A DNA stretch of 64,000 nucleotides, from the NCBI GenBank assembly GCA_050248915.1, contig JBFWRL010000003.1, positions 54,839 through 118,838 of the forward strand, in the 5' to 3' direction. The notes under the pieces are model-generated. The model did not search any database and was not told the origin of the DNA. It was given only the letters and a program-made list of their open reading frames with translations. The position numbers were made by a program, and so were the translations under genes. Below, in pieces: positions 18,257-55,847 of the stretch. Numbering within the stretch: the first letter of the stretch is position 1; every line of letters begins with the position of its first letter. The stretch comes from Candidatus Sericytochromatia bacterium. Its GTDB lineage: Bacteria; Cyanobacteriota; Sericytochromatia; UBA7694.

Positions 18257-19418
18257 CTCACGGGAGTGTGCTATTCTATTCTACATTCTACGGGAAAAAC
18301 TTCCTGAAAAGTCCCAGACGGGTATTGCTTTGAATCAACCTTCCACCCCTTTGTCTTTTTCCCTGGAAACCCTGCCCGAAGCGTGGAGCAGTCAGCAGGC
18401 TGAACTGCGTGTGGCCTGGGAACGGCTCGCAGAAATGGCCCCCGCGTGCCCGGCCTATTGGCAAAGCCAATTGCAAGCTTGCCTTGCCAGCCAAAGAGCG
18501 ACCTTGGTAGCAGCTTATGTCCAAAGTTGGCAAACCCAAGTGCAAGCGTTGCTTAAATTGGGATTGCAAGAAATTATCTTCAACTCGTTGGCGGGCATTC
18601 AGGGCGCATTGGCAGATTTGTTGGTCATTCAAGCGGCCCTGTTACAACATAAACTCAACTTTGAAAGCCTTTATCTTGGACTGCCTGGCCCAGAATCCAT
18701 TGAACCCAGTCAGATTTTAAAAAAATTTTGGCAAAACCAAGCCCGCTTGTCTGACAGCTTAAAAATGAACAATGAAACCGCGTTTAAAATGGCTCTTCAG
18801 GCCGAGTTGAATTGGCGCACTGAATTGATGATGATGCCTGGTTTTGCGTGGGTTGAAACAGCCTCTCTGTCTCAATTATCGCAAATCAGTTGTGATACCC
18901 TGGGGTATTATTTTTTATTGCGCGGCCTGTTGACCCAGCGCCAACGCCGTCTCGAGTCGGGGCAAACTGGGTTGATGGATTTAAAAGAATTGCGCAAGGC
19001 CCATCGGGCCCTCAGCGAGCCTGTTTCCCAGCCCACCTATTCTCCCCCTGAACACGCCTGGAAACTCAGTTTAACGCCCAAAAGTGAGGGCTTTGAAATT
19101 CACAATCAATGGGGACTGCCCCTCTCTCAGCTCAATCGGGGCTATCTCGATTATCTCAAAACGGGCTTTTACTGGCTCGAGCATTGTGCCGAACAAGAAT
19201 TTTCCCAACCAGGCCAATTGCTTCAGGCCGCAGAGTCTTTTTACAAAGCGCTCTCCGTCAATGCTTACAGTTACGAAGCCCATTGGGCCCTGGCCTGTAT
19301 TTGTTTTTTGATGGGATTATCAGAACAGGCCCTGGCCTTTTTGGAAAAAGCCGTTCAACAGACCCGAGATCCGGGCCTGCGCGGTTTACAAGAAGTGTTG
19401 GATTTACACGCTCAATAG
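18225..19418 (+). CDS. hypothetical protein with C-terminal TPR-like helices
   Basis: The ORF opens at 18087 but overlaps the divergent gene. ATG 18225 or TTG 18330 are more plausible starts. The C-terminus (AESFYKALSVNAYSYEAHWALACICFLMGLSEQALAFLEKAV) is TPR-like. Confidence 0.5.
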   Translation: MPIWASCAFFISRECAILFYILREKLPEKSQTGIALNQPSTPLSFSLETLPEAWSSQQAELRVAWERLAEMAPACPAYWQSQLQACLASQRATLVAAYVQSWQTQVQALLKLGLQEIIFNSLAGIQGALADLLVIQAALLQHKLNFESLYLGLPGPESIEPSQILKKFWQNQARLSDSLKMNNETAFKMALQAELNWRTELMMMPGFAWVETASLSQLSQISCDTLGYYFLLRGLLTQRQRRLESGQTGLMDLKELRKAHRALSEPVSQPTYSPPEHAWKLSLTPKSEGFEIHNQWGLPLSQLNRGYLDYLKTGFYWLEHCAEQEFSQPGQLLQAAESFYKALSVNAYSYEAHWALACICFLMGLSEQALAFLEKAVQQTRDPGLRGLQEVLDLHAQ

Positions 19419-20545
19419 CCAAAATGCCAGAGGGGCAACACGGCTTTGAGCCTTGCCAGAATGCCTTCTGCCTGAACGGGGGGAAAGGGCAAAAACAAAG
19501 CCCCAGGTGACAAACCCTTGAGCTGCTCCAGGCCCAACACTTCCTTTTGTCGAAACAGCCCGGTCTGTCCCGTCCGGGCTTCGTCCAGATAATAATCAGG
19601 GGGATTCTGCAGCAATCCCGTCACATAACCCGCAGCAATGGCCGTGCCCAAGACCACGCGCGGGCCACTAGGGTTCTTGGCCTGAGCTTCCCAGGTTTTG
19701 ATACGCTTTTGCAGATCAGCGAGTTCTGCCAGGGCTTTCTCCAGCTCGGGGCCCCGCTGGGGTTTGAGTGGCAAAGCCGGACTGGGGCTGATGCGGCAGA
19801 GTGCGGTCAACTCCTTGGGCAAAAAACGGCCCAACAGGACGACCTCCAGACCCGCACACATCAGCAGGGCCAAAAGGGTCTGTTGATTAAAATGCCAGAG
19901 ATGATCAAAAATAGTCAGGTCAAATGCCGTTTGGCTGTAATCAGGGACTTGAATCAATAGATAGCCGCCGGGTTTGAGCAGGCGGGGCAAAGCCCGCAAA
20001 TACGCCAGGGGATCGGGCAGATGTTCAAGCACATGGATCAAACTGAGCAAATCATATTGGCCGGGAATGGCTTCCAGTGGGCCAGAAAAGAACTGCTCGG
20101 CAGGAATATGCTTTTCTCTCAGGGCAGAGGGCCGGGGCCAAGGCTCATAACCACAACCCAACCAAGCGGGATACAGGGCCCTTAATTCTTGCGTAAAAAA
20201 GCCGTGGTTGCAGCCCAGGTCCAAACTGCTGCCAATCCTGGGCAAAGCCACCATTTGGCTAAGCAGGTGCAGCAATTGACGCGAGCGCGGCACTGGCTGG
20301 GTAAACAAGGCCGAAAACAGACAGGGTTCGCTGCCCATTTGGGCTTCATCGAGATCATAGCGATCGTAATAATCGTTGGGCAAAATGACCTGGCTTTGCA
20401 CCAGACCACAGCGCAGACATTCATTCAGGGTTTTGTTGCCCTCAAAGGGGTGGCAATCGGATCTCACGAGTTTGTCACTGGGCAGATGTGTGGCCAAAAG
20501 TTCGGAGTCGAGACACAGAGGGCAATGCGGTTTGGAGTGATTCAT
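19412..20545 (-). CDS. class I SAM-dependent methyltransferase with N-terminal Cys4 zinc ribbon
   Basis: HCPLC ... CLRCG zinc-ribbon pairs, SAM motif I LDLGCNHGFF and motif post-I. Architecture recalls sugar C-/O-methyltransferases. Confidence 0.75.
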   Translation of the reverse strand: MNHSKPHCPLCLDSELLATHLPSDKLVRSDCHPFEGNKTLNECLRCGLVQSQVILPNDYYDRYDLDEAQMGSEPCLFSALFTQPVPRSRQLLHLLSQMVALPRIGSSLDLGCNHGFFTQELRALYPAWLGCGYEPWPRPSALREKHIPAEQFFSGPLEAIPGQYDLLSLIHVLEHLPDPLAYLRALPRLLKPGGYLLIQVPDYSQTAFDLTIFDHLWHFNQQTLLALLMCAGLEVVLLGRFLPKELTALCRISPSPALPLKPQRGPELEKALAELADLQKRIKTWEAQAKNPSGPRVVLGTAIAAGYVTGLLQNPPDYYLDEARTGQTGLFRQKEVLGLEQLKGLSPGALFLPFPPVQAEGILARLKAVLPLWHFGY

Positions 20546-21507
20546 TGTTGAAAACCCGCTCTGTGTAAGTCCGCAAATTTTTGGCAGGCCGCAGACAGAT
20601 CCACAGGCCGCCAGTCGGGCAAAAACCGCTGCAACTTGTCTATGGCCAAGCGGGTGTCACACGGGCGCAAAAAGGGCTCTGAGAGGTCTTTCAACCCTAT
20701 CTTTTGAATCAGCCCAGTGTCTACCCCCAAACACTGGGCCAAACCCTGGGCCAGTTCAAAGCGATTGAGTCCCTCTGGCCCCCCCAGATTGTAGACACCA
20801 CGGGCATTTCGCCTCAACAACTCAGCAATGGCCTGCAAGGCATCAGAAAGCAAAAGGGGGTTAAAGATCTGATCCGCTGCCGCTCGTATCGATCGGCCCG
20901 CTTGCCAGGCTGTGGCCATTTCACCGAGCAAGCTGCCCGTTGAAAGCTGCAGGTCATAGAGTTTGGTTAGGCGCAACAGGAGGTAATCAGATTCAGCCCA
21001 GTGCTGTGTGAGAGCGGATTCCAGGGCAGATTTTTGTTGGCCATAAGGATTGCGCGGGGCCAACACCGCCCCCTCATCATAAGGAGCGTGATCCCCCCCA
21101 AAGACATAGTCTGAGCTAAACAAAACAGGAACAATTCCCCTGGCAGAAAGCGACTCAGCCAAAGCCAGGGGGCCCGCTTGATTGATCTGAGCAGTGTTCT
21201 CGGGAGCCTCAAAACACTCCCGCAAGCTGGGTTTGGCGCCACAGATCAGAGCAAATTGCACCTGAGACAAAATCGGCTCAAAAGGGGCCAAATCCGGTTT
21301 GGCCAAATCGAGGAAATGGGGCAAAGCTGGATGGTTGTGCTGACTCTGCCAAACTTGCCAACCCCCCGCTGCGGGCCCTGTCGGGGACATAAAATGAGCC
21401 AAAAGGGCCCGGCCCAAATAGCCGGAGCCGCCCAAAATCAAGAGACCAGGCTGCACACTGGGCAACGCTGAAGGCGGTGCTGGGAACAGAGGAGAATGGT
21501 TGATCAC
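20542..21507 (-). CDS. RmlD-like SDR (dTDP-4-dehydrorhamnose reductase family / sugar nucleotide-binding protein)
   Basis: Rossmann motif LLILGGSGYLGRAL. SSDYVFGG ... PYDE ... PRNPYGQQK (YxxxK), typical of the RmlD substrate-binding domain. Its stop overlaps the downstream start (ATGA). Confidence 0.75.
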   Translation of the reverse strand: MINHSPLFPAPPSALPSVQPGLLILGGSGYLGRALLAHFMSPTGPAAGGWQVWQSQHNHPALPHFLDLAKPDLAPFEPILSQVQFALICGAKPSLRECFEAPENTAQINQAGPLALAESLSARGIVPVLFSSDYVFGGDHAPYDEGAVLAPRNPYGQQKSALESALTQHWAESDYLLLRLTKLYDLQLSTGSLLGEMATAWQAGRSIRAAADQIFNPLLLSDALQAIAELLRRNARGVYNLGGPEGLNRFELAQGLAQCLGVDTGLIQKIGLKDLSEPFLRPCDTRLAIDKLQRFLPDWRPVDLSAACQKFADLHRAGFQQ

Positions 21508-21521
21508 TTGAGACTTATCAC

Positions 21522-22574
21522 TTAAGGCGCATCCATACGCAAAACACAGCGGCCAATTTGCTCACCCTGGCGTAGGCGATCAATCGCCCGGTTGATCTCT
21601 GCAAATGGCAGTATCTCAGTCACCAAGGGAGCCAGGTCCATTTTTCCTGCCGCGATCAGCGCCAGACAGGTGGGGATATCTTTGTCAGGCTGGGCATCCC
21701 CCCCATGGGAGCCCGTCAAAACTTTGCCAAAGTGCAAAGGCAGGGTATAAAGCGAAGCCTGAGCGCCTGCGCGGGGTACCCCCACCAAAACCACCCGGCC
21801 CTGGGGTTTGCTTAAGCGATAGGCATATTCAATCATGGCAGGCAGGCCCGTGTTTTCAATCACCACATCGGCCCCATGGGGCAAAGTTTGCGCCAATTCG
21901 GTCTGCCATTCGGGGTTTTGCACACTGAAAGTATAATCAGCCCCCATTTGTTTGGCCAAGGCCAATTTCCCGGGTTGAACATCCACGCCCACAATCGGGT
22001 GGCCGGTGGTCAATTTGGCCGCCTGAATCATGTTCAAACCCACCCCACCGGCCCCGAGGATCACCACCGACTCTCCAATCTTGAGCTGGGCATCATTTTG
22101 GATGACTCCCAAACCGGTGGTCACGGCACAGCCAAAAAGCGGAGCCAATTCTAGGGGGAAAGTCTCAGGCAGCGGGGTCAGACGGTTTTCAGCCACCACG
22201 GCATATTGGTTAAAGGTCGTGACCCACCCCGCATTGAGTTTTTGGCCACGCCAGCGATAAACCGGCGGTGGGGCGGGCAGACCTTGTCCCTCGCGCCAGT
22301 GCAAGACAACCCGCATACCCACTTGAATGCCTGTGACCCCTGGCCCGGTTTCCAGCACTGTGCCCACCCCCTCATGGCCCAGCAAATGGGGCAAAAATTT
22401 GTCGGGGCCTTTGACGGCATCAATCTCACCGATTTGAGAACCACAAATGCCCGAATAATGGACCTTTACAAGCACCTGCCCAACAGCGAGTGCTTCTGGC
22501 AGTTCCACTTCGTCCAAAATCAAGGGCTTGCCGGTTTCGGCCAGGATGGCAGCTTGCATCGTTTTGATCAACAT
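21522..22574 (-). CDS. zinc-binding alcohol dehydrogenase (MDR superfamily)
   Basis: Zn ligands in GICGSQIGE and LGHEGVGTV. NAD-binding VILGAGGVGL. Confidence 0.85.
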   Translation of the reverse strand: MLIKTMQAAILAETGKPLILDEVELPEALAVGQVLVKVHYSGICGSQIGEIDAVKGPDKFLPHLLGHEGVGTVLETGPGVTGIQVGMRVVLHWREGQGLPAPPPVYRWRGQKLNAGWVTTFNQYAVVAENRLTPLPETFPLELAPLFGCAVTTGLGVIQNDAQLKIGESVVILGAGGVGLNMIQAAKLTTGHPIVGVDVQPGKLALAKQMGADYTFSVQNPEWQTELAQTLPHGADVVIENTGLPAMIEYAYRLSKPQGRVVLVGVPRAGAQASLYTLPLHFGKVLTGSHGGDAQPDKDIPTCLALIAAGKMDLAPLVTEILPFAEINRAIDRLRQGEQIGRCVLRMDAP

Positions 22575-22586
22575 CTTGGCAGACCC

Positions 22587-23246
22587 CTATTCAAAATAAA
22601 TAAACGAATGATCCCCTGTATAACCGGTTTGGTCAAACCACCATTGCCAGCTTTCGGGGGAATAAAACGATTCACAGGTCAATTGCCAATAGAGCAAATT
22701 GGCTTTCTCAGCTTCATTGCGCCACGATTCCACCACCAAATAATGATTCTTGCCCACCCTTTGCATTTCGCGCAGGGCCAAATCCAAGTCATAACAGGGC
22801 AGGTTGTGTAAGGCATTGAGCGAGATCACCAGATCAAAGGCCTGGTCTGCAAAGGGCAGTGAGGTGGCAGATGCCTTTTGCAAAAAGGGTTTGACCTCTT
22901 CTTTGGCATGGGCCAAAGCGTATTCCGAAATATCCACACCGACCACGTTGATGCCCGGCACAGCTTGGGTCAAATCGTAAAGTAAAAAAGCTTTGCCACA
23001 GCCAATATCCAGAACTTTGTCTCCCGCTTTGAGGCCATAATGATCGCGCAAACCGTCGGCCACCAGGCGCCAACGCCCATCGTAGTGATAGCCGCCATAG
23101 CCCAGATGGCGTTCACCATCCCAATAGTCAAAGTCGAAAAGTTTGGCCCGTTGTGCCGCCTCGGCTTTGGGAAAGCCATTGACCCGGCCCAAATAATCCC
23201 GTTGGGTGGCTTTGTGTAAAGGTGAGAGAAAATCCAAATAGGCCAC
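22587..23246 (-). CDS. class I SAM-dependent methyltransferase
   Basis: Motif I VLDIGCGKAFLL and conserved YWDGERHLGYGGYHYDGRW block. The ORF opens at 23288, but GTG 23246 has an AAGGGG Shine-Dalgarno 7 nt upstream and removes the overlap with the upstream kinase gene. Confidence 0.8.
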   Translation of the reverse strand: MAYLDFLSPLHKATQRDYLGRVNGFPKAEAAQRAKLFDFDYWDGERHLGYGGYHYDGRWRLVADGLRDHYGLKAGDKVLDIGCGKAFLLYDLTQAVPGINVVGVDISEYALAHAKEEVKPFLQKASATSLPFADQAFDLVISLNALHNLPCYDLDLALREMQRVGKNHYLVVESWRNEAEKANLLYWQLTCESFYSPESWQWWFDQTGYTGDHSFIYFE

Positions 23247-23257
23247 TGTGATACCCC

Positions 23258-24289
23258 TTAAACAGGCTCGAAAGCCAAATGTTGCCACTGGCGCGTACGT
23301 GCCAAGGCTGCACGGATGCGGGCGATTTGGCGCTTTTGCGAGGCCGCAGAAAGACCCCCAGCAAAGTCGCGTCGCCGCACGGCTGAAGGACTAAAAAGCC
23401 CCATCAGGATACAGCACCATTTGAGTTGGTGTAAAGGCAATAATTGCCTGAAAAGTCGACGTTCTTCGGGGTGAGCCCCCAGTTCTTGCAACAGGGCCTC
23501 GATTTCAGACAAGGCGGCCACAGGCAATGGCACCCCCACCGAGGTCAAAAAATCTGCCAGGGTTTTTAAGCGGTGATCGATCCCTGCGTATTCAAAATCC
23601 ACAAAAGCCAATTGCCCTTCCGAACTGAGCAAGGCATTGTGAAATCCCACATCGGAGGGTGAGAGCCAAATAGAGGCCTTTTCAAAAAGGTGGGTCGGGT
23701 GGGGCCAATCCTGCGCATCTTTTTCGATTTTTTGCCAAAGTGGCAGCAATTCATGGGCAAACAATTCAGCCACCTCTGGCTCAAAAAAGGACTCAGTCTT
23801 GAATGCACTCACGCGTTTTGCCAGAGATTGTAGATGGGCTTCCAGTGAAAAGCAACTATCGGAAGCCGGGGCAAAGGCCTGAAGATCTTGTCCCGGAGGA
23901 TTAAGATCCATTAAAAACTTCAGGTATTGCTGAATATGGACAGATTGAAGCATTTCTGGGGTTATTGCCTGACCGGGTAGCCAACTTAACAGGGCCAGAT
24001 GGGCATTTTGATTATAGCCCAAAGGCTTGGGCACTGATTTCAGACCGAGCTTTTCAGCATGGCTTAAAAAATGCCATTCGGTTTGCAAGCGGGGGCGGGC
24101 ATCGGGGCAATAGGCCTTGAGAATCACAGGCCCCATCTGGGTTTGCAACTGCCAGAGCCGGTTATTGCGCCCCCCTCTGAGTGCAGTCAAATGCCCTGTT
24201 TGATTCTCTGGCGAAATGGCCAATTCCAGTCCGAGAGAGTGCAACAAAGGGACCATTTCTGCAGGGGGTGCAAGGGGAATTTCTGACAT
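23258..24289 (-). CDS. aminoglycoside phosphotransferase (APH)/choline-kinase fold family protein
   Basis: Brenner-like catalytic loop SDVGFHNALL and metal-binding VDFEYAG. First gene of the minus-strand operon. Confidence 0.7.
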   Translation of the reverse strand: MSEIPLAPPAEMVPLLHSLGLELAISPENQTGHLTALRGGRNNRLWQLQTQMGPVILKAYCPDARPRLQTEWHFLSHAEKLGLKSVPKPLGYNQNAHLALLSWLPGQAITPEMLQSVHIQQYLKFLMDLNPPGQDLQAFAPASDSCFSLEAHLQSLAKRVSAFKTESFFEPEVAELFAHELLPLWQKIEKDAQDWPHPTHLFEKASIWLSPSDVGFHNALLSSEGQLAFVDFEYAGIDHRLKTLADFLTSVGVPLPVAALSEIEALLQELGAHPEERRLFRQLLPLHQLKWCCILMGLFSPSAVRRRDFAGGLSAASQKRQIARIRAALARTRQWQHLAFEPV

Positions 24290-24357
24290 GATTCTCTTTC
24301 AAAAAAAGGCTTAGCTGAAGTATAACCTGTCAGGTGAAAATCAGTTAAACTGCAGGC

Positions 24358-25353
24358 ATGTTGATCAATTTTGACCATTATTTTCAGGCGCCCCAGGAAC
24401 GCCGTCTGCTCAGTCGCTCAGAAATCCAGGCTTTGGTTTTGCATTTGTTGCGGGGCCAAGAGATCAGTGATGTGGAGGCGCTTTCGGGGGGCTATCGCAA
24501 CCAAAATTACCGACTGACCTTTTTCAATAAAACCCCGGCCAAAGACATTGCTGAGGCGGTTTTGCGGGTCTCAGCAGATCTGAACGCTGCCGCCAAAGAA
24601 GTCACCCTCTTGCATCGGCTTACGGGAATTCTTCCCGTACCCCGGGTTTTGGCCTCTCGCCAGACTGCGGCCCACGCCTTTGCCCTGCATGAATATGTGC
24701 CTGGGGTCTTGGCCTCGGAATTACCAGAAACCCTCTCTGATTCCGCCCTGACCGCTGTTGGGGCCGCGATCGGTGTCACCTTGGCCCAGATTCACCAAAT
24801 TGAATTGCCGGGCTGCGGTTTTCTCGATGCCCAACTCCACATACCCGATCCCATGCCCGCTTTGGGAGATGCTTGGCTGGCTTACATGCGCGAAGTCTTA
24901 CATGGCAAACGGGCAGAAGAACGCCTGGGACGTGACCTCTGCAAACAGCTTTTGCGTCTGCTGACCCAAAACGAAGCACTTTTGCGAGATTTAACCCCCA
25001 GCAATCGCCTCGTACACTCAGATTTTAACCTCAAAAATTTGTTGCTGGCCGAAGACGAGGGCTATTGGCAAGTCAAAGCGGTGCTTGACTGGGAGTTTGC
25101 CCATGCAGGTTCACCGTTGGTCGATCTGGGTAATTTTTTTCGCTTCGAAAAAGACCTGCCACGGGCCCTCTTTGAGGGCTTTTTGCAGACCTATCAGGCC
25201 GAGGCCGGCCCTCTGCCAGTTCAATGGCGGGAGCAGGCCCGACTCCTGGATTTGGCGGCGATCTGTAATTTTTTGGATGCCCCAGAAAGCAAGCCGATCA
25301 CCTTGCAAACAGTCAGGCGAATCGTGGACGAGACTTTGGCCAGCTTTGCCTGA
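24358..25353 (+). CDS. aminoglycoside phosphotransferase family protein
   Basis: HxDxxxxN catalytic loop LVHSDFNLKNLLL and VLDWEFAHAG. Diverges from the operon above across a 68-nt gap. Confidence 0.75.
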   Translation: MLINFDHYFQAPQERRLLSRSEIQALVLHLLRGQEISDVEALSGGYRNQNYRLTFFNKTPAKDIAEAVLRVSADLNAAAKEVTLLHRLTGILPVPRVLASRQTAAHAFALHEYVPGVLASELPETLSDSALTAVGAAIGVTLAQIHQIELPGCGFLDAQLHIPDPMPALGDAWLAYMREVLHGKRAEERLGRDLCKQLLRLLTQNEALLRDLTPSNRLVHSDFNLKNLLLAEDEGYWQVKAVLDWEFAHAGSPLVDLGNFFRFEKDLPRALFEGFLQTYQAEAGPLPVQWREQARLLDLAAICNFLDAPESKPITLQTVRRIVDETLASFA

Positions 25354-25625: not shown

Positions 25626-28600
25626 ATGACACAGATTCAAGGCCGATCCACGCCGCTGGAAATCAACGGCAAAAAAAGTTTCGCCAGTCTCGAAGAAGCC
25701 AAAACAGCGGCTGCCAGCCATCAAGGCTCTGAGGCGATTTTACAGCGCGAAGATGGCCAATTTGAAGTGGTGAGCCTGGATACCCCCTCCTCTTTTGCGG
25801 GGGCCGTCAACCAGGCCCAACAAAAACACAAAGATCTCAAATACGAAATTAGCTTTGCCGATCTCAGTGACCCAGCTGAACTCAAATTTGAAGGTGCAGA
25901 TCGCACCGTGGCACTGAGTGTCGACAATCCCCGCGTCGACAACCCCCGCGCAGCCACCGGTGTGGCCCAAGATGTGATGGTGCATTTTTCTCAGCCCATG
26001 CCCGACAGCCAAATGGAGCAGGCCTTCGGCCAGTTTCAAACGGTGTCCAAACAAGAAATGGAAAAAGAGTTTCGCTTTGCCCCCGAAGGTTCAGACAAAT
26101 GGAAACTCTTTAAAGCCATGGAATTGGTGGGCAAGCTTGAAAATGAGTTGAGCTCGGTCAAAGACCTCGAAGCCAAACAAGTTTTAATGATGCGCAAAGC
26201 CGAAATTGTCGATTTGGTCAATCAACTCAATCAAAAACCCGAAATTCAAGCGGCGTTTGCCCGTGTGAATAAAGCAGCCATGGCCGCCGCGGGGGTCAAA
26301 CAGACAGATTTGGTGCGCCATGCCAATCATTTGCTCAGTCAATCGTTCCGCACCTCTTTGCAAGCTTTGCCCCCCGCCCAACAGCAAGAAACCCTCAAAA
26401 AAGAACTGGCCAAAATTCAGTTTTTTGATCCCCAATATGGGGCGGTGGTCGCCGGAGAACTGGGTTCACGCTTTTTGGTCGACGAGGGGCTGAGTCAATT
26501 GCGCGGCCTCGATGAAGAGGGCAAAGCCAAGGTCAAAGTCAATGTGGAATATTTGATCGACGATTTGGTCAAAGAGGCCAATTCCACCGCCTCAAATGCC
26601 TTTAAACCCCTGCGTGAATTGCACAAGATCATGACTCAATTGCATCCTGAGCAAGTGGGGCGTTTTAAAGACCTGCTGGTGCGTTTTTCGATCAATATCG
26701 AATCCATGGACGCCAAAGGCATTGTCAATGCAATCAAAGAACTCGAAGGCCTGCCCCCAGATTTAAAAAATGAATTGACCAAATTGGACTGGCACGGAGA
26801 ATTGCGCAAGGTGCTCAGTTCGGTGGCTGCCGTCGGAACCTTGATCAGCCTCGGTCGCAGTGCCGAGGATATTCAGGCCAAGGGCTGGAACCTCAAAAGT
26901 GGGGTGGATCTGGTCAAAAACACCGCAAGCATGATTGGCTCCTCCAAAGACGTGGCCCAAACAGCGGGCATGGTCTCAAAATGGGCCGGCATGGAAAATC
27001 TCGGCACCCGCCTCAACAGCCTGGGCAAAAGCCTGGATGCCATGAAAATGGTCAAATGGGCCGGCCCCGTGGCCAGCGCCATTTCGGGAGGCTGGGATCT
27101 CTATGAAATGAGCAAAGAGATTGGCAACGAAGACAAGGCCGGTGCTTGGCTCAAGGGTCTTTCGGGCGGGGCCGGGCTGGTCGCAGCCGGAGCTGGGGCC
27201 GTCGCCGCTTGGTATGGTGCTGGGGCCACCGCAACAGCCATTGCTGGGCCCATTGGCCTGGCTGCCGTGGCTGTGGCTGCTGCCGCAGCAATCACCTATT
27301 CATTTGTGGCCGAAAGTGAAGAAACGGGGGAGTTTCGCAAAGATCTTCGGGCCTTGGGCATTTCTGCCCAAGAAGAACAAATAGAATCCCAACTCAATCA
27401 GGTCTGGCAAGGCAAAGATCAACAGGGCCACCCGATTTTGGTTCCCGAAAAAGGCTTTGCTTGGGCCAAAGACAAGCCCGTTGAGGAGCGCGCCCGGCTG
27501 ATCAACAAATTGATGGATCAAGCCACCCATGCTCCCCAAGAGAAATTGATCGCAATGCTCTTAAACGATGGCATAGGCAAAAACAAAGACGCCCAAGGCC
27601 AAGACGATTTTGACCGCATCCTCTCCCGCACCGATCCCCGCCGACTGGCCGCAGAGTTGGATGATCAAGCCATTAAAAAGATCTTTGAAACCCTCAAAAG
27701 TCGCCCCCATCCCGAAGCCAAACAGGCGCTTGAAGCGCTCTCATTGGGTCTGGCCGACGGCAAGCGCCTGTCTCTTTTGCAAAAACCCACGGGGGCCCCT
27801 TTGGATTTTGTCAGCCAATTTTCAGCGCAGACCGTCAAAGAAATGGCTGAAGCAGTCATGAAAGGCATGACCCTGGGCAAAAAAGAGATCTTCATGACCC
27901 GTTTGGTGGTTGACCAGCCCACCGAAAAACTGGCAGAAATTCTGGGCAGAGGTGGCAAAGATTTTGTCGAAAAACTGGTTTCAGAAATTCCCAAACAAGA
28001 CACCGCCAAATTATTGGGGCGTTTTACCCAAATTGACAAAGCCCTGAGTGAAACCGAGACCCAATTGCAGGCCGCAAAAGCAGCAGGCCAGCCCACCGGG
28101 GCCCTGGAACTCAAACAAAAAACCTTGCAACACGCCCTGGATGTGCCCCTGAACAATTTGGCCCGTGTGATTGCCGACCGCAGCAACGCTTGGTTTGGCT
28201 CCAGCTATCAAGACGTGATTAAAAATACAATTCAGCCCGAGATCACGCGCCACCTCAGCCCAGAGACCTTGGAGCATGTCTCGCGGCGTTTGATGAATTC
28301 CCCCTTTGGTGCACCCGCCGATTCTGCCAAGGCCCTGGTCAAGGTTTTGCAACAGGCCACCCCCGATCAGTTTAAACAATTGATTGGCAATAATACCGAT
28401 AGCTATATCCGCCAAGTTTTGGCCAGCAGTCTTGATGCCGACCAGGCCATGGCGCTGATGGAGCGCTTTTTGCAGGGTGGCACCCAGCCTGACCGCGCTT
28501 TTCAGACCTTTGCGCTGGGTCTGATTGAAAAAGGGCACGAAAGCACGGTCAAAACCTTTCTGGCAGCCCGGCCCCACCTGGATTTAGCGGGTGTGCCTGC

Positions 28601-51974: not shown

Positions 51975-54900
51975 TTAAGCCAAACGCGCCAAATCCCTGC
52001 GCAATTCGCTGTAGGCAATGGGGTGGACTTGCTCTAAGCGTACCCCCCCATACCCCTCACTGCGGCGCAGGTGCACATGAAAGACATCGACCTCCGGGTA
52101 TTCTTTGAGCGCCCAGACGTGGTACTCAAGGCTCAAGTCCGCTTGCCAGCCCCGCCCGAGTGCCTTGCTGAGTTCCCCTTCTGACCCTTTGGGGGCTTTC
52201 CAGTCGGCTTGGTTGATCAAAGCCATGACTTTGCCCGAAGCCACTTTGCCCAGATCTGGCAAGGTTGTTTTGGCCAATTCAGATAAAGGGGCCACAAAGA
52301 CCTGCCGCTCCAATTGTTCAAAGGGTTGAACACGCCCCTCACGGGCCCACAGCTCGCGCCAATGCTGAAGGCTGGCCATCATTTCCAATGGGTGAACCAG
52401 TCCAATCTGTGCGCCCTCGGGAAGCGACACCGGCGCGCCTTCAAGATCGACAAAAGTGCCTTCGGCATTGAGACAAAAGCGCTGTTGGGGCAACTCTTCG
52501 GCTTGGCTATAACTGCCCCACACCAAGCCAAACAGCAGGGGCTTGAGCAGGGGATGATTTAAGACATCGCGCTCAAAAGCCTGCATTGACCAGCGCCTTC
52601 CCTGATACATGGCCCGCTCCAATCGCATTTTTTGAAAGACAATTTGTTTTTCAAGCTCCTTGTGGACCTGTTTAAAATTTTTGAGGGCCGCAGCTTGGCC
52701 TTTATTGGGCAATTTGGCCCTTTTTTGGCCCATGCTATCCCAGCATGTAAGCTCTCCCCCTGCCCCGATTTGCAGGCGCACCCACTGGCTTTCCCCCAAA
52801 TCAAAGTCTCTGCCGCTTTGGGCATCGAGCCCCATTTTGGGCACGAGCCGATCTCCCAGACCTTCAGACCCATCCGGGTTTTCAGCGGCCAATTTTCGCA
52901 TCAGCATGCCGGCTTTGTCTTGCACACTGGGAAAGCGGGTCTTGATCGACAATCTGTGAAGTTCGGGCCAGGCAGTTTCGACTTTTTCCATCGCCAAAAG
53001 CACGTCCAGCCCCAAGAGTGCGCGTTGTACCGAGCGCTCCCCTGGCCATTTTTCAATGCGGGGGACACATTGACGCACCGCTTCTTCTGCCCCCCAATGG
53101 GCCAGTCCCCAAAAGGCCCATTCATGTTTCAGGCTGCCACCCTCTCCCAACCAGAGTTCAAACAAACCCAGGGCAAAGGCTTCCAGACTCTCGGGGGTGC
53201 AAAGTGCTTTGACCGTTTCCACCCCGGCATAAGGCAAACCCGGGCTGTCGAGCATCAGGGTCAGCGCCAAGCAGTCCAGTGCAGCCAAAGGCAGACGCTC
53301 CCCACTTTTGAGCATGACCGGCGGCAATTGTTCTGGTTTCCAAAACGGGGGCAATTTGGGGCGTTTGGTGGGCCGAAAGTATAGGGGATTCTGGGTCAAA
53401 AGAGAGCCAAACGCCGATTCAACTTTGGGGCCAAATTCTGCAGCCAAAGTCTGAACTTCACTCGGACTGAGCAGGGGGGCCGCTGTTTCTGTGGCACGTG
53501 TCAGCAGCGATAGGGCCCGCAGAGCCTCGACTTGCAGCCCCAGTTTGGGGTTTAAACAGAGGGGAATCAACCCCCGCAGGGCGGTGGCTGGATGCCTGAA
53601 AAACCAGGTTTTGCAGACGCTTCGCTGTGAGGGGAGCCGTAGCCCTTTGAGCAAAAGGGGCACCACTTGGGGTGTGTCAAAATGACAGAGCGTGGGGTAA
53701 GTTGCCTCAGGAAATTTTTCGCACAGGGCAAAAAATCCGGGCAGGCCAGCCAAGCCAAAGCGCAGGGCCAATCTGTTGAGATCTTCCGTTTTGGGATCAT
53801 AGGGATTCCAGCGCTGGGGGGAACTTTCATTCCAGAATGTTAAAGCCGCCGGGTCTGAGAGCCAATCAAGGTGATGTAACATCACGTAGTCAAACCCAGC
53901 AAATCGTTTCAACATTTCGGGGTCACGTTGCGCCGTAAGAGGTGGTTTATCGTAAATATAGGGCCTTAAGACAGCATCACTTTCAATCACCGGCCGCGAA
54001 AAATCCATGCCCGCAGGCGCATCTGGCACAGCCAAATCAGTGCAACTCGGCCATGATTGGGCTTGAGCGGCAGAAAATTGCCAATGCTCTGGCTGAAAGT
54101 AGTCCGGCAAAGCGCTCACCATCGGTGCTTCGGGGGATTCAGGCAGCCACTGGCTCAGCTCTTTGGCATGGGTCAATTTAAGTGGGTCCAATGCCGCAGG
54201 GGGCAAACTGCGCAATAAACCTGTCAACAATGTTTCTGCTTCGGGATAAGCTTTGCGCTGTTTGAGTTTGTGCAGCAAGATTTGTACACCGATCAGCGGC
54301 TCAGCACTCAGCTGGAGATGGGCCTCTTTGCCAGCATCTTTGTGTTTGAGCAATTCCACCCAACAGTTCAGGGCCGCTTCTGAGTGAATGAGTTTGAGCA
54401 CCGCCACCGCTTTTTTGCGTGTGGCTGCCCGTTTGCCAGCCACAATCAGGGCATACAAGCTCAAGGTTGCAGCATGCCCGGCTCTTTCGAGCAGCCAATA
54501 CAGGGCGGGCTCATGCAAGAGCGAGAGGTTGTCCCACAGATCGGCGTGTTCTTTGGCTTTGGAGATAAAGTGTTGCGCCATCTGATCCAGCAGGGTTTGA
54601 TCGCGCAACCAAGGCCAGAGAAACCAGCCCGAGGCCCACAGTTCAGGGTCTTGAGTGGGATTGAGAGCCAGCCATTCGGATATATCAGCCTGCTGCCAAT
54701 CGCGCTCTTGAAAAAGGAGCCAGTCCAGCCCGAGACGCAAACTCAACGGGGCATCTTGGCGCAATTTTTCAAGTGAAGCGCTCAGGGCGTGGGCCTGATC
54801 CGCCTGCATCTGCGCCAGTTGGAGGCGCAAAGCCCAATTTTTGGCATTGCTCAAATCCCAGAGGGTCAGGGGCAGCGGGCGAGAAACACGGGAAATTTCG

Positions 54901-55739
54901 AAAACATATTTTTTATACTCAGAGCTGAATTTGACTTCAGAACGAATCGATCTGGCCTCAATCCAGGCCTGTACACAGCCAGCAGGCCCCAGTTCTTGCC
55001 AAAGATAATCTACGCCATGGCGGCGGCGACTGACAGTAAGCAGGATTGCCGCCAGTTCAGGAGAGACCTTTTGGGGTTGTCCAGTAATGGCCCATTCACG
55101 CGCAGCTTGGCCCAGAGCCTCCCATGCCGAATCTCCCACCCAGACACTGTCTTTGAGCAGTTTTTCCAATTCTGGCAGCAGTTTTTTCCAAGCCAAAGTC
55201 CGGTCATCTGCCGGGCCCAAGACTTTGACTTCACCTGGATAAGAAAAATTGTAATACTGTGCCACCAACTCCTTTTCACGCAATTTGGGGGTCCATTTGA
55301 TACTGGGAGTAAGGGTCGCAAGACCCGAATGAGCCAGGGTAGTGCCAGATGCAGGTTCTGGTGGCGGGAGAGCCGTCTCGGATTTTGCCTTGGTTTTTGT
55401 CGCGGGTTTTGCTGCACTTTTGGCCTTGGGGGTGACGGGGGTCGGAGAAGGGGTTGCGCTGGCCAGCACATGGGATGAAATATCTGCCGGAACAGGGTGC
55501 GAAACTTCAGGCGAGGCTGGCTGTGAAGAGCCCGTTTCAAGGGGGAGATAGCCTTTTTTTAATTTGGCTTTGAGCTGTTGCTGGAGAAATTGTTCGGCCT
55601 CCGCTTCAGAGCCAAAGTTTTTGACCTGGCTTTGACCTGCCGTGCCCGAGCGGCCCCATTTGAGCAGCACTTCCTGGCCTTGTCTTTCTATTTGCCAAAA
55701 TTTATCCGCATTGCCCTCTGTAAAACCCAGCTTAACCAT
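51975..55739 (-). CDS. MolR-like WGR domain / DUF4132 domain-containing protein
   Basis: N-terminal WGR domain (DKFWQIERQGQEVLLKWGRSGTAGQSQVKNFGSEAEAEQF...KGY). C-terminal region with DUF4132-like blocks (LNHPLLKPLLFGLVWG, GLVHPLEM, VQPFEQLERQVF). ATG 55739 has a GAAGGG SD. The ORF opens at 55841. Confidence 0.75.
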   Translation of the reverse strand: MVKLGFTEGNADKFWQIERQGQEVLLKWGRSGTAGQSQVKNFGSEAEAEQFLQQQLKAKLKKGYLPLETGSSQPASPEVSHPVPADISSHVLASATPSPTPVTPKAKSAAKPATKTKAKSETALPPPEPASGTTLAHSGLATLTPSIKWTPKLREKELVAQYYNFSYPGEVKVLGPADDRTLAWKKLLPELEKLLKDSVWVGDSAWEALGQAAREWAITGQPQKVSPELAAILLTVSRRRHGVDYLWQELGPAGCVQAWIEARSIRSEVKFSSEYKKYVFEISRVSRPLPLTLWDLSNAKNWALRLQLAQMQADQAHALSASLEKLRQDAPLSLRLGLDWLLFQERDWQQADISEWLALNPTQDPELWASGWFLWPWLRDQTLLDQMAQHFISKAKEHADLWDNLSLLHEPALYWLLERAGHAATLSLYALIVAGKRAATRKKAVAVLKLIHSEAALNCWVELLKHKDAGKEAHLQLSAEPLIGVQILLHKLKQRKAYPEAETLLTGLLRSLPPAALDPLKLTHAKELSQWLPESPEAPMVSALPDYFQPEHWQFSAAQAQSWPSCTDLAVPDAPAGMDFSRPVIESDAVLRPYIYDKPPLTAQRDPEMLKRFAGFDYVMLHHLDWLSDPAALTFWNESSPQRWNPYDPKTEDLNRLALRFGLAGLPGFFALCEKFPEATYPTLCHFDTPQVVPLLLKGLRLPSQRSVCKTWFFRHPATALRGLIPLCLNPKLGLQVEALRALSLLTRATETAAPLLSPSEVQTLAAEFGPKVESAFGSLLTQNPLYFRPTKRPKLPPFWKPEQLPPVMLKSGERLPLAALDCLALTLMLDSPGLPYAGVETVKALCTPESLEAFALGLFELWLGEGGSLKHEWAFWGLAHWGAEEAVRQCVPRIEKWPGERSVQRALLGLDVLLAMEKVETAWPELHRLSIKTRFPSVQDKAGMLMRKLAAENPDGSEGLGDRLVPKMGLDAQSGRDFDLGESQWVRLQIGAGGELTCWDSMGQKRAKLPNKGQAAALKNFKQVHKELEKQIVFQKMRLERAMYQGRRWSMQAFERDVLNHPLLKPLLFGLVWGSYSQAEELPQQRFCLNAEGTFVDLEGAPVSLPEGAQIGLVHPLEMMASLQHWRELWAREGRVQPFEQLERQVFVAPLSELAKTTLPDLGKVASGKVMALINQADWKAPKGSEGELSKALGRGWQADLSLEYHVWALKEYPEVDVFHVHLRRSEGYGGVRLEQVHPIAYSELRRDLARLA

Positions 55740-55819
55740 GTTTACTGCCCTTCTTTTCAAAACTGTGCGGGATTCGTTCACCTTCAAATTGAGCCCATGG
55801 AGACTGAGCCCATTGAGAT

Positions 55820-55847
55820 TTACTTCCGCTATTTCCTCCATTATAAT
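55820..55847 (+). promoter_or_regulatory. candidate sigma70-type promoter for the 600-aa orphan
   Basis: TTACTT, 16 nt, then a perfect TATAAT (55842-55847), 50 nt upstream of ATG 55897. Preceded by the direct repeat tgagcccat x2. Confidence 0.3.

Follow-up and report, generated by a model that had tools for sequence, protein, structure and literature searches.

A probable array of divergent annexin-type repeats joined to a putative VasX/Tke5-related helical domain in a giant protein of Candidatus Sericytochromatia

In the current study, a chromosomal gene of a Candidatus Sericytochromatia bacterium, an uncultured non-photosynthetic relative of cyanobacteria, was analysed and we propose, at a probability of roughly 0.8, that its 1,933-aa single-gene product combines a remotely VasX/Tke5-related all-helical N-terminal domain, in which a hydrophobic hairpin is buried, with a nine-module annexin-type array that retains the acidic D-E turn in six of its nine modules. 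Each module is a divergent annexin-type repeat of five helices (A to E) followed by a two-helix extension, the annexin loop K-G-x-G-T-D-E having been replaced by G-[WYM]-T-x3-[ED]-E.

The gene and its repeat array

The complete ORF occupies positions 25626..31427 (+) of the window, i.e. the whole stretch of 64 kb that was analysed, and consists of an ATG start, 1,933 aa and a stop codon. The first-pass annotation had claimed an ORF of this size, which is indeed present, and the six repeat cores that it quoted all lie inside, at aa 744, 1029, 1146, 1296, 1408 and 1780. Three syntenic relatives carry a gene of identical length, and comparison with these gives a dN/dS of 0.046–0.055 at a dS of ~1, with zero indels in 5,799 nt, representing strong purifying selection; the shared length and the dN/dS of ~0.05 together lead us to treat the ORF as a real gene. 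Orthologues are 44–98% identical and every one of them derives from Candidatus Sericytochromatia/Blackallbacteria MAGs. A phmmer search of the PDB with the whole protein returned no match, while whole-protein Pfam and NCBIfam searches returned only FliG_N and a sub-threshold match to BTH_I2691.

Concerning the N-terminus, aa 1–120 (25626..25985, +) differ among distant orthologues and contain no hydrophobic signal, MIX motif or module. The hydropathy scan agrees with the earlier statement that a signal peptide is lacking, and since the N-terminus is without a hydrophobic run, the protein has no Sec signal.

The array is made up of eight clear helical modules of ~112 aa; a degenerate ninth and a partial tenth emerge on profile-profile comparison. 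The module spans 111–114 positions, as defined by HMM iteration with orthologues. On the forward strand, module 1 (aa 611–720, 27456..27785) has a degenerate loop (LMDQATHAPQEKLI) and keeps the acidic ELD, module 2 (aa 723–838, 27792..28139) carries VMKGMT and is modelled by AF2 at a pLDDT of 93–97, and module 3 (aa 867–979, 28224..28562) has a degenerate loop and bears the Pfam FliG_N match. These are followed by module 4 (aa 1007–1123, 28644..28994, +) with LMDGWT, module 5 (aa 1124–1225, 28995..29300, +) with MMKGYT, module 6 (aa 1273–1386, 29442..29783, +) with LMAGYT, and module 7 (aa 1387–1497, 29784..30116, +) with LSKGWT. Module 8 (aa 1498–1600, 30117..30425, +) is degenerate and was detected by profile-profile comparison only (hhalign 94–96%, E 1e-8, 94 columns), and module 9 (aa 1758–1868, 30897..31229, +) carries LMSGWT. 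The C-terminal tail (aa 1869–1933, 31230..31424, +) is possibly a partial module (hhalign probability 54%, 41 columns); at the corresponding place, the family protein P0005 has a full additional module.

The proposed spacing of 110–150 aa fits the module starts that lie 111–149 aa apart and breaks down at a 157-aa gap formed by aa 1601–1757 (30426..30896, +), a stretch which is conserved (dN/dS 0.08–0.09) and has neither a module nor a family match. Two degenerate copies had also been proposed, and an HMM built only from the six units quoted does recover two copies on which it had not been trained, at aa 620–697 (11.3 bits) and aa 872–957 (22.4 bits), the best score among 200 shuffles of the protein being 4.1 bits. 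These scores, together with the maintenance of each module position among orthologues, exclude a chance or low-complexity repeat. Modules within the array are 15–30% identical to each other, as against 59–84% between orthologous modules, and on these comparisons the repeats are real and ancient. The Q[FL]..L helix after the core and the acidic ..EL.. helix, two further elements of the original description, recur as conserved columns across the wider family, F or L being present in 81% of sequences in the former and E in 82% in the latter. In the window protein, six modules show the loop G-[WYM]-T with an E three to five residues further on, and in three of nine this motif is lost. Modules 1, 2, 4, 5, 6 and 9 keep the E of (S/D/N/K)EL in the D-E turn.

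Relationship of the modules to annexins

In eukaryotes, annexins are textbook cases of Ca2+/membrane proteins, and to our knowledge only about thirty bacterial homologues had been described. The AF2 model of module 6 (pLDDT 84.4) contains seven main helices and a short C-terminal one, the helices at residues 14–27, 31–42, 46–53, 59–69 and 72–83 being those which, by model and sequence, can be aligned in A to E order with an annexin repeat. As a whole, the unit measures ~112 aa, not ~70 aa, and is composed of an annexin-size five-helix core plus the two-helix extension.

The sequence relationship was assessed with three nested module profiles (A2, A4 and A5) searched against the PDB. Annexin A8 ranked first with A2 (E 0.0045) and annexin VI was matched by A5 (E 2.7e-4), annexins being the top-ranking natural proteins with both profiles. 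A4 matched annexin VI (1.6e-6), annexin XII (7.6e-5) and annexin V (1.5e-4), and ~45 of the 60 matches listed (E up to 1.1) are annexins. These A4 alignments run from helix A through helix E and place the module ‘sELd’ over the annexin ‘SELS/TG’, the E of the module D-E turn coinciding with the E of that motif; in annexins this acidic capping residue lies ~38–40 residues downstream of the loop, and in annexin V it is a Ca2+ ligand. In profile-profile comparison by hhalign, A4 aligned with a set of 12 annexin repeats at a probability of 90.7% (E 1.2e-6) over 66 columns, helices A to E and annexin positions 3–73 of 82; against only the four verified ANXA5 repeats the probability was 67%. Column shuffles reached at most 0.4%, and reversed plus shuffled controls scored at most 12.3 with probabilities of at most 0.5%. 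In the reciprocal direction, an annexin-repeat HMM scored 13 family proteins above 10 bits, the control maxima being 6.4 bits (shuffled) and 8.7 bits (reversed).

A further line of evidence is provided by P0106, a protein composed of DUF4157 and seven 63-aa ‘MxGWGCDA’ repeats, at the N-terminus of which a DUF4157-like HExxH can be read by eye. It was found by a Sericytochromatia-only profile at an E-value of 7e-11 and reaches 75 bits when searched with the HMM of annexin repeats, and 26 of its 27 phmmer matches in the PDB are annexins. By these sequence measures, P0106 with its GWGCD repeats is a bridge between the module family and annexins.

The modules are nevertheless outside the annexin family as it is defined, given that a PF00191 match and the GxGT motif are missing and that Foldseek listed no canonical annexin. 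Specifically, Pfam PF00191 did not match the whole protein at E<=10, is absent from the families listed for 41 giant-family modules, and matched one of 75 wide-family modules (E 0.014), while the module consensus sequences had no Pfam match of any kind. The GxGT motif occurs zero times in the entire protein, which therefore lacks the type II Ca2+ loop (K/R)-G-x-G-T-(D/E); this bears out the earlier reading of KG-[WYM]-T in place of KG-x-G-T, with six modules showing G-[WYM]-T. In Foldseek, the model of a single module had no PDB match at E<=0.001, and canonical annexins are absent from its top 50 matches. The annexin resemblance first noted is borne out by the profiles, hhalign, the reciprocal HMM and P0106, and has no counterpart in PF00191, GxGT or the Foldseek top 50; the module would seem to be a remote relative of the annexin repeat, so far without a family entry of its own.

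Compared in detail, the module and the annexin repeat (PF00191) share the five helices A to E, the pattern ‘aM.G-loop-[DE]E..I..IL..s..q...l....L..EL’, a tandem order, the acidic residue of the D-E turn and a hydrophobic or aromatic loop tip, as in GWGT annexins, their profile and hhalign alignments being in register. The module differs by the missing GxGT, by two extra residues after the loop (the earlier note had allowed for a spacing difference of one or two), by a shorter helix C (eight residues in the model), by the ~40-aa two-helix extension and by an array of nine units as opposed to a four-repeat core; in comparison with PF00191 the modules lie below every Pfam threshold. The best TM match in the PDB was astrotactin-2 (5J67; PF18411), with a TMq of 0.53 and a probability of 0.98 over 93 columns, an alignment that may lie in its annexin-like domain, and A4 aligns to residues 429–503 of that chain (E 0.32). 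Astrotactin-2 contains a solitary annexin fold which has no detectable sequence homology to annexins and binds Ca2+ (PMC4892435); it is, in contrast, a vertebrate protein with one copy attached to a MACPF domain, and its matches to the module are weak. The corresponding Pfam family, Annexin_2 (PF18411), was detected in five of 75 modules and, at 8.7e-6, in one family protein. A Foldseek search of viral structures found no match.

An alternative that we judge unlikely is that the modules are not annexin homologues and instead represent ARM-like helical repeats of a generic kind, as in FliG_N/MgtE_N, in which case the annexin similarity would reflect convergence on a helix-loop-helix pattern and the array would be a protein-protein interaction solenoid or spacer. 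Both families share short amphipathic helices of the pattern ‘L.pe....l...L’ with the modules, FliG_N formally passes on module 3 (26.4 versus a threshold of 25 bits) and is found in five of 41 giant-family modules, MgtE_N matches six of 75 modules (best 2.2e-5), and phmmer with module 3 finds FliG alone, at an E-value of 0.29. Moreover, the weak Foldseek matches of the module model include PUF, 14-3-3 and the cytosolic domain of MgtE, and a 721-aa model of the N-domain plus two modules, which is too long and too helical, matched only generic alpha-solenoids with a TM below 0.2. Against this, no FliG or MgtE chain is among the 60 A4 matches listed, in which annexins reach the 1.6e-6 given above, FliG attains only 0.026 with A2, FliG_N is matched by only one of the nine modules, MgtE has a TMq of 0.32 versus 0.53 for astrotactin-2, FliG_M, FliG_C and the MgtE CBS and TM parts are absent, and the family profiles, P0106 and the reciprocal HMM favour annexins. 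As a separate matter, membership of the FliG/MgtE family itself was rejected, as FliG requires FliG_N, FliG_M and FliG_C within ~330 aa and FliG_N is the only one of these present.

The N-terminal domain and its hairpin

The N-domain (aa 121–610, 25986..27455, +) is all-helical and is common to ~30 ‘short-form’ proteins, as seen by phmmer and in the AF2 model. It contains a Gly/Ala-rich hydrophobic helical hairpin (aa 509–562, 27150..27311, +), recognised by its Kyte-Doolittle profile and modelled by AF2 as helices at aa 504–529 and 534–561. The hairpin has a mean hydropathy of about 1.2–2.2 and its columns A536–A549 are invariant; the Kyte-Doolittle scan of the protein shows no strongly hydrophobic stretch other than aa 509–566. 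The first-pass annotation was correct in assigning a membrane hairpin, which is not a bare anchor and would instead form part of a ~480-aa VasX/Tke5-related domain.

This assignment is based on NCBIfam NF041559 (BTH_I2691), which matches aa 167–556 at an E-value of 5.4e-7 over profile positions 501–816 of 858 with 28.5 bits, i.e. far below the curated cut-off of 150 bits, and which matches nine of 33 family members at E<=0.01 (best 8.8e-8). The matched portion covers an alpha-helical region with membrane-inserting helices, in keeping with the hairpin and the all-helical AF2 model. In Tke5, the transmembrane segments lie at residues 608–813 of the alpha-helical region, and this region is by itself enough to kill, by depolarising (PMC12909789). 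The match points to a weak, remote relationship of the N-domain with the pore-forming alpha-helical region of the VasX/Tke5 T6SS toxins. Solved Tke5/VasX chains were matched neither by sequence nor by Foldseek, and a regular-expression search of the window protein revealed neither the MIX motif hRxGhhYhh nor its relaxed form R.G..Y. Likeness to VasX/Tke5/Ptx2 thus lies in the all-helical region with its membrane-inserting hydrophobic helices, whereas the window protein differs from these toxins in having no MIX, no beta-rich Ig-like C-terminus (the C-terminal two-thirds consist of helical modules) and no Tap, immunity or T6SS genes nearby. The Pfam colicin pore domain was considered and discarded: its match has an E-value of 1.1 over 35 residues (aa 519–553), and nothing beyond hairpin-likeness is drawn from it.

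Wider family, genomic setting and possible role

The module family comprises 218 clusters at 50% identity, with one to 11 copies per protein. In eight of 41 proteins the module occurs with eCIS_core/DUF4157, and in P0013, P0016, P0021 and P0024 (2,058–2,252 aa) the eCIS_core domain is followed by six to 11 modules, which make up the long stretch behind it. Other partners are Peptidase_C70 (AvrRpt2), C39-like peptidases and ATLF lethal-factor-like domains, and by virtue of these associations the module is one that rides on toxin-type proteins elsewhere, placing it in a toxin/effector setting. The opinion that bacterial annexins are rare and short does not survive, as multi-domain bacterial annexins were described in 2014 (PMC3894181) and the module family has the size given above and includes other proteins of 2,000–2,250 aa with six to 11 modules. 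The bacterial annexins of Kodavali et al. (2014), listed from 17 species without cyanobacteria-related lineages, resemble the module family in their variable copy number, their fusion to DUF4157 metallopeptidase, lethal-factor-like peptidase and toxin domains, their predicted TM anchors and their patchy phylogenetic distribution, and differ in that they strongly keep GxGTD and the Pfam annexin model detects them; a fusion to a VasX/Tke5-like domain is not described there (PMC3894181). With the eCIS_core toxins the window protein shares large size, a multi-domain make-up, the lack of a signal peptide and the modules themselves, and it differs by the absence, in Pfam, of the eCIS_core domain PF13699 with its HExxH.

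Geller et al. (PMC8213781) reported unexplained linkers of >1,000 aa that separate DUF4157 from toxin domains, and in the four eCIS_core proteins named above such stretches are modules. It could be argued from this, and from the loss of the G-x-T loop in three of nine modules, that the array serves mainly as an extended, foldable linker or helps to pack cargo, as in DUF4157 toxins, with the N-domain as the sole business end and no lipid-binding role for the modules. We hold this to be very improbable, since among the columns of 140 diverse modules those of the loop and the acidic turn are the best conserved (T 92%, E 83%, E 82% and G 79%; wide-family loop consensus G79-x-T92-x3-E47-E83), which argues for a specific site and not mere spacing, and the dN/dS of the modules (about 0.05–0.06) is as low as that of the N-domain (about 0.04–0.05).

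The favoured reading is that the protein is membrane-targeted and membrane-perturbing, with the annexin-like array binding lipid; in our estimation its chance is slightly below even. A working mechanism is offered as a tentative one, somewhat less probable again. The AB loops with their aromatic tips and the acidic D-E turns would face a phospholipid surface, perhaps bridged by Ca2+, and the array would keep the protein flat on the membrane; at the resulting local concentration, the N-domain could open up and its hairpin enter the bilayer, which would be perturbed or permeabilised with ion leak and depolarisation, as with Tke5. The target would be the membrane of another cell, reached by an export route other than Sec.

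The genomic setting bears on this question. Synteny is conserved in housekeeping surroundings, and neither secretion machinery nor an immunity-like neighbour that is conserved was detected in the scanned ORFs of the 64-kb window or in seven other contexts. Genes for a T6SS, a Tap adaptor or immunity are likewise absent from the scanned window ORFs, no operon partner was detected in the window or the seven other loci, no eCIS genes were seen beside the window gene or P0013, and scans for promoters and terminators did not rise above background. Together with the low dN/dS and the zero indels, this synteny makes the gene look more like a core cellular one than a fast-evolving weapon. It may accordingly be asked if the protein is a resident scaffold or repair factor and not a toxin, its hairpin being permanently anchored in the cell's own cytoplasmic membrane with both ends cytoplasmic, and its inner-leaflet array organising, stiffening or resealing that membrane upon Ca2+ influx, in the manner of eukaryotic annexins. 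We consider this a serious rival, if on balance unlikely; it would account for the missing signal peptide, secretion marker, immunity gene and secretion genes, for purifying selection in every segment at an exactly kept length, for the stable synteny and for a hairpin that places both termini on one membrane side; moreover, one bacterial annexin is predicted to be cytosolic and membrane-anchored (PMC3894181). The kinase genes which flank the window gene, and the APH gene which flanks P0036, also speak for it. What stands against it is that the N-domain resembles no family other than toxins, in their pore-forming region, that the module elsewhere accompanies toxin/effector domains, and that a Gly/Ala-rich hairpin within a soluble helical bundle would fit inserting toxins better than constitutive anchors.

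Returning to the proposed combination of annexin-type array and VasX/Tke5-related domain, its broadest extension would be a large bacterial branch of the annexin superfamily that has so far escaped recognition; this branch has a remodelled Ca2+/membrane loop (G-W/Y-T-x3-EE), fills the ‘>1,000-aa linkers’ of eCIS_core/DUF4157 toxins, is fused to a VasX-type pore-former in the non-photosynthetic cyanobacterial relatives Sericytochromatia and Melainabacteria and acts as a Ca2+-gated membrane-coating delivery or repair device that has no described equivalent; this extension is speculative and, on balance, doubtful. Acceptance of the family would add at least 218 bacterial clusters (50% identity) to the superfamily, in which the loop chemistry differs, the unit is longer and arrays reach eleven copies, and would bear directly on the proposed bacterial origin of annexins. 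Under the same condition, the long unexplained stretches of many contractile-injection-system toxins would gain a testable identity as membrane-binding arrays, and the coupling of a VasX/Tke5-like membrane-inserting domain with a lipid-recognition array within one protein would be a new architecture, from a barely studied bacterial class. Current database entries for the family proteins are labelled FliG_N or carry no label.

The module array and its conservation

The open reading frame at 25626–31427 (+) opens with an ATG and comprises 1,933 codons. All six repeat cores quoted in the first-pass annotation were found in its product (aa 744, 1029, 1146, 1296, 1408 and 1780), and when these units are aligned together with the 22 preceding and 75 following residues, their similarity goes well beyond the core. 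The two further copies it had proposed were recovered, untrained, by a six-unit HMM at aa 620–697 (11.3 bits) and aa 872–957 (22.4 bits), the top score among 200 shuffles of the protein being 4.1 bits. Iterated once with orthologous sequences, the HMM gave a unit of 111–114 positions and modules at aa 611–720, 723–838, 867–979, 1007–1123, 1124–1225, 1273–1386, 1387–1497 and 1758–1868 (modules 1–7 and 9), to which profile-profile comparison of ortholog slices added a degenerate ninth copy at aa 1498–1600 (module 8; probability 94–96%, E 1e-8) and a partial module in the C-terminal 65 residues. Modules 8 and 9 are separated by a conserved stretch of 157 aa (aa 1601–1757, window 30426–30896) in which no module or family match was found; it contains the Gly/Ser/Met-rich segment GFAGMGSLASSASGSNMLGYLSSRMG, and its dN/dS of 0.08–0.09 is the highest in the protein, though still that of a constrained sequence. 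Since a given module is 59–84% identical across orthologues, as against 15–30% between paralogous modules, the array is old and position-specific.

Full-length relatives form only six clusters (44–98% identity), and all genomic matches to the giant gene are MAGs of Candidatus Sericytochromatia/Blackallbacteria. Three relatives are syntenic with the window at approximately 84% nucleotide identity. The identical gene length in all three, together with a dN/dS of 0.046–0.055 at a dS of ~1 (0.02–0.09 per segment, low throughout), shows that the giant protein is functional and under tight constraint.

Relationship of the module to annexin repeats

Database searches with the giant protein itself were little informative, as phmmer against the PDB gave no match and Pfam assigned nothing to the module region except FliG_N, which matched module 3 alone (26.4 bits; gathering cut-off 25). 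The precomputed Pfam label of the orthologues P0001 and P0002 is likewise PF14842 (FliG_N), which is probably misleading for a non-flagellar protein. The giant-family module profile, A2, retrieved from the PDB a designed protein first, followed by annexin A8 (E 0.0045), annexin VI (0.01) and FliG (0.026). An exhaustive A2 search of 1.84 billion representatives showed that the distribution of the module is far wider than that of the giant protein: 218 clusters passed E<=1e-3 and 102 passed E<=1e-10, each protein having 1–11 copies. Melainabacteria and Pseudomonadota MAGs are among the named sources.

A4, built as a profile from 75 diverse modules, matched annexin VI (E 1.6e-6), annexin XII (7.6e-5) and annexin V (1.5e-4) in the PDB, annexins making up ~45 of the 60 matches listed, with astrotactin-2 at 0.32; the annexin alignments cover helix A (‘aMKG’), B (‘DE..II.IL’), C and D up to the ‘SELSG’ turn. 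Annexins were again at the top (2.7e-4 and 8.8e-4) when the search used A5, for which full-length short-form proteins had been aligned independently. That the modules are instead FliG_N/MgtE_N-like solenoid repeats of convergent sequence is improbable, no FliG or MgtE chain being present among the 60 A4 matches listed. MgtE_N matched 6/75 modules. Pfam Annexin_2 (PF18411) matched five of the 75 (0.002 at best) and, at 8.7e-6, one family protein.

In hhalign, A4 matched twelve annexin repeats (the four of human annexin A5, whose sequence was confirmed as identical to 1AVH, plus eight fragments from the A4-PDB alignments) with a probability of 90.7% (E 1.2e-6, 66 columns), and the four A5 repeats alone with 67%; the controls, a reversed alignment and 30 column shuffles, scored <=12.3 with a probability of <=0.5%. 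The eight window modules alone reached 13% (score 21.7), and the annexin link therefore rests on the wider family. Reciprocally, the annexin-repeat HMM gave >10 bits to 13 family proteins; shuffled sequences reached 6.4 bits at most and reversed ones 8.7. Its best match (75 bits) was P0106, a protein with a DUF4157-like N-terminus, as judged by eye, and seven 63-aa repeats, ‘AAMxGWGCDAxxIxRLVxxATPAE...LVERLAxELSQEDM’; a Sericytochromatia-only profile also picks up this protein at E 7e-11. In phmmer searches of the PDB, 26/27 P0106 matches were annexins, aligned over two consecutive repeats. In the common register, module M-k-G-W-T-s-g-e-s-E-t-A-I corresponds to P0106 M-s-G-W-G-c-d-(gap of 2)-a-a-a-I and annexin M-K-G-l-G-T-D-E-k-s-I. 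P0106 bridges the module family and the annexins.

Across 140 diverse modules the conserved columns are L79-M59-x-D40-G79-[W/Y/H]-T92-x3-E47-E83-x-A52-I76-x2-I55-L76, followed downstream by F56 ... L57-x2-E82-L75-[DE]. In contrast to annexins, with their GxGT loop, the window modules lack this motif, and a motif search found it nowhere in the giant protein; the tip of the module loop is aromatic, like that of GWGT annexins. In annexins the D-E turn adjoins the AB loop and provides the Ca2+ cap; its acidic residue is retained in 6/9 window modules. The loop motif is lost in modules 1, 3 and 8.

AlphaFold2 modelling of module 6 from a 41-row module alignment (pLDDT 84.4, pTM 0.77) gave helices at 3–10, 14–27, 31–42, 46–53, 59–69, 72–83 and 91–105 and a short one at 110–113. 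The module is thus predicted to have an A-E core of annexin size, preceded by one helix and extended by two more, which explains why its period is 112 aa, longer than that of annexins (~70) or of P0106 (63). When this model was compared with the PDB in Foldseek, no match reached E<=0.001 and the top 50 contained no canonical annexin; the top TM-score was that of astrotactin-2 (0.53, prob 0.98, 93 columns), although the aligned region of 5J67 may not be its annexin-like domain. That domain can be superposed on repeat 3 of annexin V at 1.45 A and, though its sequence homology to annexins is undetectable, it binds Ca2+ (PMC4892435). The fold comparison is suggestive rather than decisive. The resemblance proposed in the first-pass annotation thus stands on profile, hhalign and reciprocal HMM searches and on P0106, but remains a twilight-zone link. 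Lacking GxGT, the modules fall outside the annexin family as defined; that they work like annexin repeats is still plausible.

The N-terminal half and proteins carrying the module

The N-terminus is devoid of any signal-like segment, and the only hydrophobic stretch of the giant protein is aa 509–566, in agreement with the absence of a signal peptide and the membrane hairpin reported earlier. NCBIfam NF041559 (BTH_I2691 family) matched aa 167–556 over profile positions 501–816 of 858 (E 5.4e-7), far below the family cut-off, and was the only recurrent match among 33 relatives (9/33, best 8.8e-8). This family is the VasX/Tke5 group of T6SS toxins, in which a MIX domain at the N-terminus is followed by an alpha-helical region and a beta-rich C-terminus; in Tke5 the alpha-helical region, with predicted transmembrane segments at residues 608–813, is enough to kill via depolarisation (PMC12909789). 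In the window protein the match is confined to the helical/TMD part; the beta-rich domain is missing, and a motif search for MIX was negative. The AlphaFold2 model of aa 120–840 is all-helical (pLDDT 80.7), with very confident modules and lower confidence in the hairpin (aa 504–561); Foldseek with this long model was uninformative, and A5 gave no sequence match to solved Tke5 in the PDB.

Approximately 30 of the 149 listed representatives, including two NCBI Sericytochromatia entries, are short forms of 700–870 aa with the same N-domain and just two modules, and the giant protein is an expansion of this core. The motif F.sLeEAk.AA....GsEAIlqReDGqFeVv.Ld (aa 1–55, window 25626–25800), common to the window protein, P0004 and P0005 and replaced by unrelated Pro/Ser-rich sequence in P0003 and P0006, may act as a tag for targeting or export.

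Among 41 proteins scanned, the module accompanies eCIS_core/DUF4157 in eight and C39-like peptidases in four; other partners are AvrRpt2-like Peptidase_C70, anthrax-lethal-factor-like ATLF domains, tyrosinase and EF-hands. Canonical bacterial annexins have the same partners, namely DUF4157, lethal-factor-like peptidase, toxin domains and TM anchors (PMC3894181), and this sharing lends independent contextual support to the annexin assignment and to a role in membrane-directed toxins. Four proteins (P0013, P0016, P0021 and P0024; 2,058–2,252 aa) carry two eCIS_core stretches in their first third and then 6–11 modules, a stretch which matches the unexplained ‘>1,000-aa linker’ of DUF4157 toxins noted by Geller et al. 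(PMC8213781); P0013 (L011 10001–16555) has no contractile-injection genes within 10 kb. That the array is a linker only is very improbable.

In the best-supported reading, a lipid-binding array is combined with an inserting VasX-like domain: the annexin-like array would attach to a phospholipid surface, possibly with Ca2+, and the VasX-like domain would then put the hairpin into the membrane and render it leaky. Of the novelty claimed earlier, toxin-domain fusions of bacterial annexins were already known, but Pfam has no entry for the loop-variant, long-unit, high-copy family, and the joining of a VasX/Tke5-like domain to a module array in Sericytochromatia is not described.

Genomic surroundings

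No secretion genes were found within the 64 kb window, no T6SS, adaptor or immunity genes near the giant gene, and no immunity gene in the eight contexts examined; together with the missing export marker and housekeeping-like constraint, this counts against a classical toxin and makes a serious, if rather unlikely, rival of a resident scaffold or repair protein that the hairpin anchors in the membrane. In the context of the short-form P0027, a 101-aa ORF on the same strand overlaps its stop codon (L013 8445–8750); it has no family match, is not conserved in the other contexts, and is possibly an immunity-like partner, the sole candidate coupled small partner in any context. Downstream of another module protein, P0010, an RVT_1 reverse transcriptase gene (530 aa) and large unannotated ORFs of 1,256 and 549 aa (L009 16555–23563) possibly form a retroelement-based system.

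In the window the giant gene is surrounded by ordinary chromosomal genes (methyltransferases, sugar-nucleotide enzymes, Maf, glycine-cleavage genes, APH-type and Ser/Thr kinases and a two-component kinase), and stands alone, since the surroundings of the more distant orthologues P0004 and L006 are unlike those of the window. Kinase genes flank it on both sides: two divergently oriented APH-family phosphotransferases upstream (23258–25353) and, 120 bp downstream, a 784-aa protein with Pkinase and APH domains (31548–33902). An APH gene (L012 4166–5179) also lies directly downstream of the short-form P0036 and a Pkinase gene 5 kb from P0004, which could be coincidence or a regulatory link. Four co-oriented genes at 19412–23288 (-), encoding a SAM methyltransferase, an RmlD-like reductase/epimerase, a Zn-dependent dehydrogenase and a second methyltransferase, look like a small sugar- or metabolite-modification cluster. 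Elsewhere in the window, a 1,288-aa WGR + DUF4132 protein (51975–55841, -) is encoded close to a 575-aa protein consisting almost entirely of HEAT/PBS-lyase-like repeats (57696–59423, -; HEAT_2, E 1.9e-146).
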